A stretch of DNA of 64,000 nt from NCBI GenBank assembly GCA_963783385.1, contig CAWANJ010000009.1:896410-960409 (forward strand), read 5' to 3'. Under the pieces are notes generated by a model. That model had not been told where the DNA came from and made no database searches. It worked only from the letters and a program-made list of their open reading frames with translations. Below, piece by piece: positions 53,787 to 58,862 of this stretch; the stretch's first letter is position 1, and every line of letters starts with the position of its first letter. The translations under genes were made by a program, and so were the position numbers. Source of the stretch: an uncultured Gemmatimonadales bacterium. GTDB taxonomy: Bacteria; Gemmatimonadota; Gemmatimonadetes; Palauibacterales; Palauibacteraceae.

Positions 53787-56631
53787 ATGGCAAACTCGCA
53801 AGAGCTGTTTCGCTTTCAGGTGATTCGACCGCCACGCCCGGGTCTGGCCTCGAGCGCGCCTGACGAGCCCGAACCGAAGAGTGAGCTGGCACCCGAGATC
53901 GAGGGCTCGGAGACACAAGACGAGGCGCTGCGATCCGCGGAAACCTACCGGTCCTCGTCCAGCTACGTGAGTGGGCTCTCCGACATCCCGGAGAGTATCG
54001 AGACCTCTCGAACTGGATCGACCAGCACCCGGGGGCGGACGACGCCGAAGTGAGTGCGGCGGTCGCCACGCACCTCGACGTCGATCCGAAGGAGGTCGTC
54101 GCATCATCGGAGTTCGCCGAGCTCCAGGTCCGTGTAGCGGACAGCGAGATCGCGGACCTGCTCAGCGGCGAGGCAGGAGCGGCCCGTGCCGTGGGCCGCA
54201 TGCTCCTGCGTATCCGACAGGCCGCCGGCGAATCCACGGTCGGTGCGGGACTTCCGATCGACGTGCGACTTCCAGGCCCGCCCGCACCGACGGACGGCGG
54301 GAAGACCGTCCCCGACGTCTCACCCGGCTCCACGCTGGAGGAGTTCCGCGCTCTGGTCGATCTGCGGGCCAGACTCCACCGCGGCGCCGTGGAAGCTCTG
54401 GCGACCGGCCGGCCGGGCACGGGGGCGATCAGCGCTCATGTACGCTTGGATCCAGCGGCGCCGGCAGCCGGGGGCGGCGACCGTCGGTTCCGGGACCTCA
54501 CGCTCGAGGATCTGCCGCTCGATGAGTCGGACCGGACCCGACTTCGGGACTTGCAGCTCGAGTCGGGAACGGGGGTGCTGGAGGCCCTGCGGTCCGTGCA
54601 GGAGCGAATGGACCGCGCGCTCGAGGACGGCGTGGGCCCCGCCGGGAGCGACCCGGCGAGCGCGAGGACCAGAAGCCTGGCCATGACCTCGGAGCTGCCG
54701 CGGTTTCTCTTCGAGATCGGAGCCGGATACGCCCAGGGCTTCAAGGTCATGGATCTCGAAGTGGGCGAGCGCACGCTCAAGCGGTACGAAATGGCGGAGA
54801 TCGCCCACATTGAGAATGCGCTCCGGGGCGAGCTGCGCGTTCGAGATCACGTCCGCGGCACGGTGCGCGAGGACATCACGATCGTCGACGATTCGACGCT
54901 GAGGTCGACCGAAGAGGACCTGCAGAGCGACGAGCGCTTCAGCCTTTCGAGACAGGCGCAAGACGTTCAGAGAGCGGAAACGGAGCTCCAGGCCGGGCTC
55001 AAGGTCAATGCGAGCTACGGTCCCGCGGTGCGGGTGGAGATCACGGGAAGCGCGAGCCAGAACCGATTCAACGAGACGGTCCAGAACGCGGCTAGCGAGT
55101 ACGCACGCAACGTCACGAGCCGGGCCGTCAGCCAGAATGCAGACCACCCATCGAGAGCAGAGGATCACCCGGCAGGTCGAGTCCGTGGAGGAGAGGAACC
55201 ACCACGAGATCGACAACAGGGGTCAGGCGGATCATGTCATCGGGGTGTACCGCTATATCGACAAGACCTACGAGGTCGCGGTGCGCAACTACGGGGTCCG
55301 ACTCGTGCTGGAGTTCATCGTCCCCGAGCCGGGAGCGAATCTCCTGCACGCGGCGGCGGCGAGCGGATCGGCGGCGCAGGTCGAGAAGCCCGAGGAACCG
55401 ACGTTCTTCGATCGACCGCTTCGACTGACGGACATCCGCGACGACAATGCCTACCGGGTGATCGCCAGTCGGTACGGGGTGGAGGTGGAGCCGCCCCCGC
55501 GTCCGCTCGTCGCCCTGACGGAGGTGCAGTTCGACCACGACTCGGCCAAGGAGGTGCAGCCGGCCGGGACCGTCGCGATTGCGAAGGGTTCGATCCCGGT
55601 GCCGGACACGCATTATCCGTCCAGCGTATGGGGTCGATTCGCGGGCTTTCAGACGGAGGTCGGTCTGTCGCTCTACACGCCCGACGACACGGCCGGGGCC
55701 GGGTACTCCGACCCGCCACCCGACAGCCTGGTGGGGAAGGAGTACGCCGTCTTGGTGCAAGAGGGCGAGATGTCGGGGAGGGGCCCCATCCTCGTCGACC
55801 TCGAGCAGATCACGGAGCAGGCGGCCGGACCCGTCGACTTCGCCGCCGTCTCGCGAGAGAACCCGATCACCGGCGGCGTGCACGGCGGCGGTGTGGTCGA
55901 AGCCTTCTGCCTGCCCACGGCGGCCGCGTTCCAGGCGTGGCAGGTCAAGACGTTCAACGCCATCATGGACGCGTATCGACGGGAGCTGGACAAGTCCAGG
56001 AAGCACTGGCGGCCGCCGACATCGGCGCGGGTGTCCGGATACAGGGCCGCAGCCCGGACATCAACCGTGAGTACGAGCGCAACGAGCTGAAGCGCGGCGT
56101 GATCACGTTGCTCGAGGGATCGCCGCCCGACACGCCGGCGATCGCCGGGGACGGCTTCAGCCCGGTGCCGGCGATGGCCGCCTCCCACGGCCCGAAGATC
56201 TCCTTCTTCGAGACCGCCTTCGAGTGGGAGCACATGACGTACGAGACGCTCCCGTACTACTGGGCGCGCCACGATCAATGGGATGCCTTGCTGTCGATCG
56301 ACGATCCCGATCCCGAGCATCGCAGATTCCTGCAGGCGGGGGCTGCGCGCGCGCTGATCCCGGTCCGCCCGGATCACGAATGGTACGTAGCCGGCGTGCT
56401 GACCGCGATCGTCCTCCACGGTGGCACCATCGCCCCCAGCCTGTTCGAGCCATCGCGGGGCCGGCCGTGATCGTTCGGTCCTTCTACGAGGCGGTCACCG
56501 ACGTGCTCGACGCACGGTCCCGGGAGAGCGATGATGAGCCGAGGACCGTGGGCCAGCCGTTCGAGGTGACCGTGCCTACGAATCTGGTGATCCTGCAGAA
56601 GGACTCTGCGCTCAATCCCCACGACGCCTGA
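53787..56631 (+). pseudogene. very large hypothetical protein 'ORF B' (about 948 aa), no recognisable family; at least 4 frameshifts
   Basis: A protein-like reading requires frame switches at about 53990 (…SDIPE|YRDLSNWIDQHPGADDAEVSAAV…), 55140, 56010 and 56450 (…SLFEP|IAGPAVIVRSFYEAVTDVLDARS…NPHDA*). GC is about 60-62% against roughly 70% in the flanks. Confidence 0.5.
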
Positions 56632-56639
56632 GCTCCACC

Positions 56640-58862
56640 TTGGGCTCACCTCTCTCCGTCCACCCGGCACCGCGCGCGGTGCTGGAGCTGGCGGCGTGGC
56701 CAGTCCCGGATCCGGCGATACGAACTCCCCTGGCCGACGAGGACCGGTATTCAGGCGACCCGGGCTTCTTCGCGGTTCCGTCCGACTCCGAGGTTCCGGA
56801 ACGCTGGCTGCATTCCGACACGACCCGCCTTGCGGTACGCTCCGTCAACGACACCGACCCTTCGCTCCGTCGAGGGGCGAGGGAGTCGCTGGCGACTGGC
56901 GTCAGCCGCCAGGTCCCCGATTTCGATCTCTTCCGCGAAGCGATGAGCCGCGAGAAGGCCATCAATGTGATCCTCCTTCTCGTCTTTCCGGGCAGCACGG
57001 CCGACAACACGGGCACGAAGGACCTGAATGACAAGGTCCTCGGCTATTCACTGACCTCCGAGTACATAAGGAAGAGAAACGCGGCCATCGACGCCGTGTT
57101 CGAGGCCGAGGGCTTCGTGATGATCGATCAGGACTTCAAGTCGAGCGGCTTCGTGCCGACCGCGGAGGCGTCCAGGCACCTTCTCGACGCCGGGCAGGCG
57201 CAGAAGAAGCGCTCGCGGGAGTATCGCGAGCGCTTCGACCGGGGACTGTCCGCCCTGGACGGGCGACTGCGCGACCTCCTGCTGGACATCCTGCAGAATC
57301 GATTCGACGAGATCGATGAGACGCACCGGGAAGCGGCGCGGACGTTACGGGATCGCCTCCTGGAGGACGCGGACCATCGGTTCGACGTGACCTACGGCAT
57401 GGCCAACCCTGCGGGGAGAGGGGCGACCTCCCAGGACATCTACCCCCCACTGCTCCTTGCGAAGCTGAATGCTTCCAAGGCCTCGTACACGGCGCGGCGT
57501 CGGGACCTGATCGACTCCCTGCTGCCAGGCTGGCACGGCTCCGACTTCGACCGGCGCGGGTACGCGTTCGACCCGGCCACGTACCAGCGCCTGTCCGTGA
57601 AAGCCGGGGAGATCAGAGACGAGATTCGGCGACACCTCGATGGCCAGATCACGGTGGACGGAGTCCGCGCCAGGGTCTTCGTTCGGGTCCGGGGAAAGCT
57701 GACCCCCAACCGCCACGTGATGCGGGACGCCCGGAAGGGGAAGATCAAGCCGCCGGATCCCTCACCGGAGAAGGACCAGCTCGAGCGCATCGAGGGATAC
57801 CGAGCCATCGTCAACACGATGGACGTGTTCGAGAGCTTCCTCTCTGGCGAGCTGGACGGCGAGAAGGCCGGGCAGCTCCGACGCGCCACGCGGCTCCACG
57901 AGAAGCTGGGGAGGATGGACACCGATATCGGGCGAGGCGAGCTCTCGCGGGTGCTCGACGTCGATGTCCGCATGGAGAGGATCGCGCTGGCAAACCGGAC
58001 CTCCGAGTACCTGTTCTTCACGGAGGCGGCCGATCATCGACATCGAGTCATCGTCGGTCTCGACATCCGCGATCTCGGAGTGGACGCGCTGATCGAGTAT
58101 GCCCGGGCGGTGGACCGGGTGGCCGAGAAACCCGGCACGAGCCTGCTGGCGGTCACGCTCGAAGCGAACGATCCGATCCTGGCCATGAAGCGCCACGCCG
58201 TCGACCTGATCGTCGACGCCTATGGCAAGATGGCGTCGAAGCTGCTGGCGGCCGACGTGGGCTGGTTGCATGACGCCGCCGAACCGTACAACCGTGCCTG
58301 GGCGGAGGCCTACGGCTATGCCGGAGGCTTCGACATCCTCGCCGACCCTCTCGACCGCTCGGAGTCCCCCAACTACCTCATCGGCGGCGACGAGGTGATT
58401 CTCGCGCTCCCGCCCGCGTTTCTGCCGCTGATCCCCGAATTCCTGGGGCGGGTCTGCCCGCCGTCGGCCACGAACACTCGCGGCGCCGTGGTCTTCTCCG
58501 ACGCCGGTCACCCGCCCGACGCGGATCCCGCGGTTCAACGTCGGCTGAATCAGCACGCCCACGCGACCGCGCTGACGGCGGCCGACAAGGGGCCCGACAT
58601 CCTGAAGGACCTGGAGCGAGATCACTGGCGGCTCGGACGGAAGATCGAGAAGATCGACGACGATGCGGAAAGGCGGGAGAAGCAGCGCCGCCTTGCCGGC
58701 CTGGGGCTTCTCCGATTGTACGTCGAGATTCCATCGCTCTACGGCATTCCCGACCTTCTCCCCAGTCGTGTCTTCATCAAGGACTTCTCCGGGACGAAGA
58801 GGAGCTTCTTCGACCTGAAGCGTCGCATCGCCGAGCTCGAGAAGGAGCTTCCGGCCACCTGA
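56640..58862 (+). CDS. large hypothetical protein 'ORF C' (740 aa) with C-terminal GGDEF/palm-like signature
   Basis: The ORF is intact, with a TTG start 9 nt after the ORF B stop and lower GC. The C-terminal region has VIVGLDIRDLG (58050-58080) and RSESPNYLIGGDEVILALPPAF (GGDEV at 58383-58397). This matches the GG(D/E)EF plus hydrophobic run plus P pattern of diguanylate-cyclase and mCpol palm domains. The N-terminal 500 aa are unrecognised. Confidence 0.55.
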   Translation: MGSPLSVHPAPRAVLELAAWPVPDPAIRTPLADEDRYSGDPGFFAVPSDSEVPERWLHSDTTRLAVRSVNDTDPSLRRGARESLATGVSRQVPDFDLFREAMSREKAINVILLLVFPGSTADNTGTKDLNDKVLGYSLTSEYIRKRNAAIDAVFEAEGFVMIDQDFKSSGFVPTAEASRHLLDAGQAQKKRSREYRERFDRGLSALDGRLRDLLLDILQNRFDEIDETHREAARTLRDRLLEDADHRFDVTYGMANPAGRGATSQDIYPPLLLAKLNASKASYTARRRDLIDSLLPGWHGSDFDRRGYAFDPATYQRLSVKAGEIRDEIRRHLDGQITVDGVRARVFVRVRGKLTPNRHVMRDARKGKIKPPDPSPEKDQLERIEGYRAIVNTMDVFESFLSGELDGEKAGQLRRATRLHEKLGRMDTDIGRGELSRVLDVDVRMERIALANRTSEYLFFTEAADHRHRVIVGLDIRDLGVDALIEYARAVDRVAEKPGTSLLAVTLEANDPILAMKRHAVDLIVDAYGKMASKLLAADVGWLHDAAEPYNRAWAEAYGYAGGFDILADPLDRSESPNYLIGGDEVILALPPAFLPLIPEFLGRVCPPSATNTRGAVVFSDAGHPPDADPAVQRRLNQHAHATALTAADKGPDILKDLERDHWRLGRKIEKIDDDAERREKQRRLAGLGLLRLYVEIPSLYGIPDLLPSRVFIKDFSGTKRSFFDLKRRIAELEKELPAT

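Follow-up and report, generated by a model that had tools for sequence, protein, structure and literature searches.

The most likely role of ORF C is that of enzymatic effector in a polymorphic conflict cassette of two genes. The gene lies in a 64,000-nucleotide stretch of DNA from an uncultured Gemmatimonadales bacterium (the window), and its 740-residue product is identical to a protein already held in NCBI/ENA (P0001). With modest confidence, we read this protein as a palm enzyme, predicted to be catalytically competent, that acts as the effector of a mobile cassette in which the preceding gene, ORF B, is the constant partner. ORF C consists of a palm with about 450 extra residues on its N-terminal side and a helical C-terminal domain. 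The two genes and the elements of ORF C are as follows.

53787..56470, + strand: ORF B, conserved as the partner of ORF C, whose intact product would have about 890 aa; recognised by tblastn and HMM matches to B homologues
56640..58862, + strand: ORF C, 740 aa with a TTG start; palm fold (GGDEF/Cas10-like), founding member in the window of an unnamed family
56985..57047, + strand: N-terminal conserved unit FPGSTADNTGTKDLNDKVLGY, residues 116-136, which follows strand 111-115, opens helices 126-156 and holds the conserved K127, N130, D131 and G135
58041..58079, + strand: β1 strand and loop HRVIVGLDIRDLG, residues 468-480, with the strand modelled at 468-476 and D475, D478 and G480 conserved
58128..58364, + strand: helical insertion, residues 497-575, comprising helices 502-537 and 540-558 and a lower-confidence loop (DSSP of the model)
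58371..58412, + strand: predicted catalytic hairpin YLIGGDEVILALPP, residues 578-591, with GGDE at the turn between strands 578-581 and 585-590, from the model and conservation
58473..58499, + strand: β4 strand NTRGAVVFS of the palm core, residues 612-620, modelled as strand 613-621, with R614 and S/T620 conserved
58527..58649, + strand: C-terminal helical region, residues 630-670, modelled as helix 630-670, with polar residues H641, K656 and E659

The structure model of ORF C has a pLDDT of 87.9 and a pTM of 0.89, and the pLDDT rises to 94 over residues 581-590; an AlphaFold model from a three-sequence alignment was unusable (pLDDT 47.6). From strand 468-476 the chain passes through helix 479-496, two inserted helices (502-537 and 540-558) and strand 578-581 to the GGDE turn, and continues through strand 585-590, helix 592-605 and strand 613-621. 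The surroundings of the motif are therefore β-α-(two inserted helices)-β-β-α-β, with GGDE placed at high confidence on a palm hairpin. The DIRD strand and GGDE occupy the positions that the β1 metal-binding aspartate and the catalytic hairpin take in palm cyclases. ORF C would thereby join the RRM-like palm superfamily, whose other members include GGDEF cyclases, class III cyclases, Cas10 and mCpol. By superposition, the ORF C palm matches solved GGDEF domains, and its core resembles the structure of OptS; the same fold is also found in GTP cyclohydrolase III and Y-family polymerases. The best Foldseek match was Cas10/Cmr2 (4doz, E 1.1e-3), followed by Csm1, GGDEF proteins and a two-domain soluble adenylyl cyclase, with the global TM-score against Cmr2/Csm1 only about 0.17. 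A search of viral folds in BFVD returned no significant match.

The original prediction had picked out a GGDEF-like hallmark, RSESPNYLIGGDEVILALPPAF, and an upstream strand, VIVGLDIRDLG, and both are present in ORF C. The protein carries LIGGDEVILALP, in which GGDE corresponds to G582-E585 (58383-58394); the segment L580-P591 is encoded at 58377-58412, so that the hairpin motif extends 12 bases past the end first assigned to it. The upstream strand spans residues 470-480 (58047-58079), with the codon of D475 at 58062-58064. The long distance between the two motifs was also recognised correctly: D475 and G582 are 107 residues apart, because two helices are inserted between them, and within the family this spacing ranges from 75 to 107 residues. 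The comparison with PleD was apt, as that protein reads ...LLIDIDFFKKIND...CRYGGEEFVVIMP with about 40 residues separating its two motifs. In the six-frame translation of the window, GG[DE]E[FVIL] occurs once against 0.39 expected from 100 shuffles.

An exhaustive profile search found 223 relatives of ORF C, and the family forms about 220 clusters at 50% identity, drawn from soil Actinomycetota, Myxococcota, Proteobacteria and Bacteroidota, with members of 700-830 aa or longer. Conservation was counted over 151 family representatives from the profile search, of at most 50% mutual identity and aligned to the family HMM. The GGDE residues are invariant among the representatives (G582 and G583, 111/111 each; D584 and E585, 110/110 each), and the β1 region is conserved almost as strictly (D475, 109/109; D478, 108/109; G480, 109/109). 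The fifth position of the hairpin motif is V, I or L in the family, not F. Conservation extends beyond the palm motifs to the N-terminal unit (K127, 102/102; N130, 104/104; D131, 99/104; G135, 98/105), to R365 and D395, which are invariant, and N392, conserved in all but one (about 100-113 representatives at no more than 50% mutual identity), to β4 (R614, 88/114; S/T620, 103/113) and to the C-terminal region (H641, 106/111; K656 and E659, 113/113 each). Searched by tblastn, the plasmid collection contained no match to ORF C or P0005 and the phage collection none to ORF C (P0001); the family profile (alignment A4) found no match in IMG/VR.

At the level of sequence, ORF C is not a member of the GGDEF, mCpol or Cas10 families. 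It has no Pfam match at E ≤ 1; no Pfam model, PF00990 (GGDEF) and PF00211 (class III cyclase) included, matched any of 38 family members even at E ≤ 10, and a profile search of the PDB with the family returned nothing at E ≤ 10. Neither ORF B nor ORF C matched Pfam, NCBIfam, PHROGs or PDB entries, whether as a single sequence or as a profile. With PADLOC (PADLOC-DB 2.0), the only match of ORF C was to CARF at chance level (E 0.074), and no model matched the homologues of C, the intact homologues of B or the alternative partners found beside B (described below). When the palm of ORF C was compared by hhalign with a small alignment of PleD and 6D9M, with and without the helical insertion, only the GGDE hairpin aligned (16-19 residues, E about 0.012-0.017, a score reached by 1 of 60 column shuffles), and LGGDE was placed on yGGEEF of PleD. 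The N-terminal unit fared no better against the GGDEF profile than shuffled sequences did (15/60). An RxxD I-site five residues before GGDE is not conserved, residues 573-576 of ORF C being RSES, nor is there a conserved Asn eight residues past D475 or any other identifiable guanine-specifying Asn/Asp. The original prediction of a divergent palm nucleotide cyclase or nucleotidyltransferase thus holds at the level of the fold, given the invariant motif residues and a spacing explained by the inserted helices, and membership of GGDEF or mCpol is not supported, given the lack of a PF00990 match and the hairpin-only alignment. Since significant homology to known cyclases does not extend past the GGDE hairpin, the proposed chemistry rests on the fold and the geometry of the motifs.

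Compared with GGDEF diguanylate cyclases (PF00990; PleD 1W25, DgcZ 3TVK/4H54), ORF C shares the aspartate at the end of β1 and the GG[DE]E sequence at the β2/β3 hairpin with the hydrophobic strand that follows. It differs in lacking a profile match, in the V/I/L at the fifth motif position instead of F, in the helical insertion of 60-80 residues between α1 and β2, and in the missing RxxD I-site and recognisable guanine-specifying residues; moreover, its palm is embedded in 740 aa that are linked to ORF B and contain no sensory domains. Like Cas10 (Cmr2/Csm1), ORF C is a large protein with a GGD[DE] palm in its C-terminal half, followed by a helical domain. Cas10 has a degenerate N-terminal palm, for which a counterpart in ORF C is only possible, and a GGDD palm with a helical D4 domain after it. 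Most Cas10 proteins carry an HD nuclease domain, and the gene is found with those for Csm/Cmr subunits and a CRISPR array; ORF C has no HD domain, no nearby cas genes and no CRISPR array, and is partnered by ORF B. The class III cyclases (the pseudo-heterodimeric soluble adenylyl cyclase 4CLF, and Rv1625c) differ from ORF C, which has no PF00211 match and carries GGDE in place of the cyclase consensus, in their insertions and flanking domains. The mCpol protein of Panoptes, OptS (PDB 9MNR), is a palm fold alone, of about 120 aa (119 residues in 9mnr_A), which crystallised as a putative tetramer and in which the GGDEF motif is nearly absent (PMC12657218). ORF C, in contrast, is a 740-aa protein with an invariant GGDE, and its partner B is unrelated and has no detected receptor domain.

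The model and the family alignment suggest how the enzyme might work. D475 at the end of β1 and D584/E585 on the β2/β3 hairpin would hold two divalent metals, and these would activate a 3'-OH for attack on the α-phosphate of an NTP. K127 and N130 could complete a nucleotide/phosphate pocket, to which R365/K366, N392/D395 and H641/K656/E659 would also contribute. The N-terminal region 111-173 is modelled as β-α-α-β-β, and its conserved unit may be a nucleotide-binding element or a degenerate first palm like that of Cas10 or soluble adenylyl cyclase; the internal profile match between this unit and the GGDE palm, which sets GIKDLN on DIRDLG, is weak, with a score reached by 3 of 60 shuffles. From NTPs, ORF C would make a cyclic or oligomeric nucleotide, or it would use NTPs up in some other way; it might act on the cell that produces it, on a competitor or on a host.

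ORF B lies immediately upstream of ORF C. In the present assembly its reading frame alternates, shifting near 53987-54050, 55137-55146 and 55996; these shifts coincide with indel differences to a second assembly, the two assemblies differing by 82 gap openings in 14 kb; its N-terminal motif, ELFRFQVIRPP, falls within the ORF 53787..54053. B homologues are 760-1200 aa long with many invariant residues, and a word-indexed search gave at least 201 family proteins at E ≤ 0.001. Among 13 GTDB species genomes from the profile scan with alignment A4 (Actinomycetota, Alpha-, Beta- and Deltaproteobacteria, and Bacteroidota), B is immediately upstream of C in 12, and the two genes are also adjacent in the window and at loci L001 and L002. 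Over 16 loci, essentially no other neighbour within 5 kb is conserved, a single ORF pair being common to two loci, and no conserved immunity gene accompanies B and C. The B-C stretch has a GC content of 0.65-0.68 against 0.70-0.77 in its flanks. Its neighbours in the window encode an M1 peptidase, an MFS transporter, TerB and HigBA, and we found no flanking repeats or promoter-like or terminator-like sites around the cassette and no CRISPR array within the window.

Some observations weigh against the effector reading: both proteins lack signal peptides and known markers of secretion, immunity genes are not conserved and eCIS genes do not occur near the window cassette, so that no delivery route for a toxin is apparent, and B is frameshifted in this assembly. 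No known nucleotide-sensor domain (CARF, SAVED, STING, TIR or other) was found in B with Pfam, NCBIfam or PADLOC. By inspection, B contains a Ser/Thr/Gly-rich segment between charged helices, and this segment could be membrane-active. Elsewhere, B is followed by other genes in place of C: a PAD-domain protein (arginine deiminase), a Mur ligase with an uncharacterised protein, an amine oxidase, or uncharacterised proteins. A patatin gene lies two genes downstream of B at locus L027 and adjoins B on its upstream side at L024 and L033. By HMM search these alternative partners are not distant relatives of C, and they have no N-terminal adaptor region in common. Rotating enzyme partners are the typical pattern of polymorphic conflict systems. 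ORF B would be the constant partner, with a part in delivery or activation or as a scaffold, and an exchangeable enzyme would be encoded next to it.

A second context for C-like modules comes from fusions. Eleven family representatives have an N-terminal DUF4157/eCIS_core domain and a C-like module at the C-terminus, and one of these, P0039 from Vitiosangium, belongs to an eCIS locus that also includes genes for Pvc16_N, an AAA ATPase and two more eCIS_core proteins. This is the signature described for eCIS toxins, an N-terminal DUF4157 domain, a long linker and a C-terminal toxin (PMC8213781). Other fusions join the C-like module to Peptidase_S8 (followed by a GH25 protein) or to VanY, and the giant proteins that contain C have no B-like region. 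ORF C of the window differs from eCIS toxins in being paired with ORF B instead; it has no DUF4157/eCIS_core domain, and no eCIS genes lie near the cassette. In the main text of PMC8213781 and of a further eCIS toxin study, the words 'cyclase' and 'GGDEF' do not occur, and the further study also does not use 'palm'. The absence of a sensor domain in B, its pairing with other enzymes and the presence of C-like modules in a toxin slot together make C look like an effector and not a signal generator. The original prediction had suggested that ORF C could generate a nucleotide signal in the manner of CBASS, type III CRISPR or Thoeris, with ORF B as partner or effector, and this suggestion fits these observations poorly.

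Four other explanations of the locus have to be weighed. A defence system based on a second messenger, likened to CBASS, type III CRISPR, Pycsar and Panoptes, would have ORF C sense infection directly or through B, make a cyclic nucleotide or oligonucleotide and thereby activate B as the killer. It would account for a palm-cyclase fold with an intact catalytic hairpin and for a tight two-gene operon of lower GC in variable contexts; one B-C locus lies 2.7 kb from a SMODS and patatin CBASS system, the window cassette is 3.7 kb from the HigBA pair, and the possibly membrane-active segment of B would suit a killer. We nevertheless consider it improbable, as B has no known nucleotide-receptor domain (Pfam, NCBIfam, PADLOC), its pairings with patatin, PAD, amine oxidase and Mur ligase are hard to square with a dedicated cyclic-nucleotide receptor, C-like modules without B end DUF4157/eCIS proteins, and neither protein matches a PADLOC model. 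Less probable again is a role for C as a nucleotidyltransferase of proteins, in which it would be one of several interchangeable enzymes that covalently modify or activate B or its target, with B as the functional end product. The modifications would be citrullination (PAD), oxidation (amine oxidase), amide ligation (Mur ligase) and nucleotidylation (C). The known alternative partners of B are indeed all enzymes able to act on proteins or on small amine or carboxyl groups, and B, at 760-1200 aa with many invariant residues, is the constant element. Against this, we know of no palm-cyclase-fold enzyme that nucleotidylates proteins, C-like modules in fusions with DUF4157, S8 and VanY do without B, and B's different partners share no adaptor sequence.

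The remaining two explanations concern ORF C itself. That it is an ordinary divergent GGDEF diguanylate cyclase of housekeeping c-di-GMP signalling is very improbable, and we rejected it. PF00990 matches none of 38 members even at E ≤ 10, the protein has no conserved RxxD I-site, identifiable guanine-recognition Asn/Asp or sensory input domains, and nothing in c-di-GMP signalling resembles its architecture, its strict linkage to B or its fusions in a toxin slot. One might also suspect a motif that arose by chance in an ORF of high GC content, or an artefact of assembly, given the noisy assembly with its 82 gap openings and the abundance of G, D, E, A, L, V and P when DNA of 72% GC is translated. 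This explanation is refuted, and its probability is negligible: about 110 divergent homologues spread over several phyla keep the motifs unchanged, the palm is modelled with high confidence, ORF C aligns end to end with its family in one frame, and the full pattern [RLIYM][YILM]GG[DE]E[FVIL] followed by four hydrophobic residues and P occurs once in the window and 0 times in 100 shuffles.

The reading of ORF C as a cassette effector would place the palm fold in a new setting. The known palm-domain cyclases serve either in housekeeping signalling (GGDEF, class III) or in generating immune signals (Cas10, mCpol), and an exchangeable effector or toxin with the Cas10/GGDEF fold would be new for the superfamily; literature searches turned up no earlier description of such a GGDEF-like family of toxins or defence proteins. 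More tentatively, and with the balance of probability against it, the ORF C family may be a new branch of the GGDEF/Cas10 superfamily in which a two-palm, Cas10-like cyclase or oligomerase is used as a weapon, carried by eCIS where it is fused to DUF4157 or otherwise deployed by ORF B, its nucleotide product, which may be a new one, poisoning or mis-signalling target cells. The family is uncatalogued, with about 220 clusters and no model in Pfam, NCBIfam or PADLOC. The locus also exposes ORF B as a second uncharacterised family with rotating enzyme neighbours, for which annotation libraries and literature searches yielded no mechanism; if the reading is correct, B would be a new polymorphic platform carrying effectors, with cyclase, patatin, PAD, amine oxidase and Mur ligase as its partners. 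For ORF C, the invariant residues D475, D584 and E585 make the predicted catalysis directly testable.

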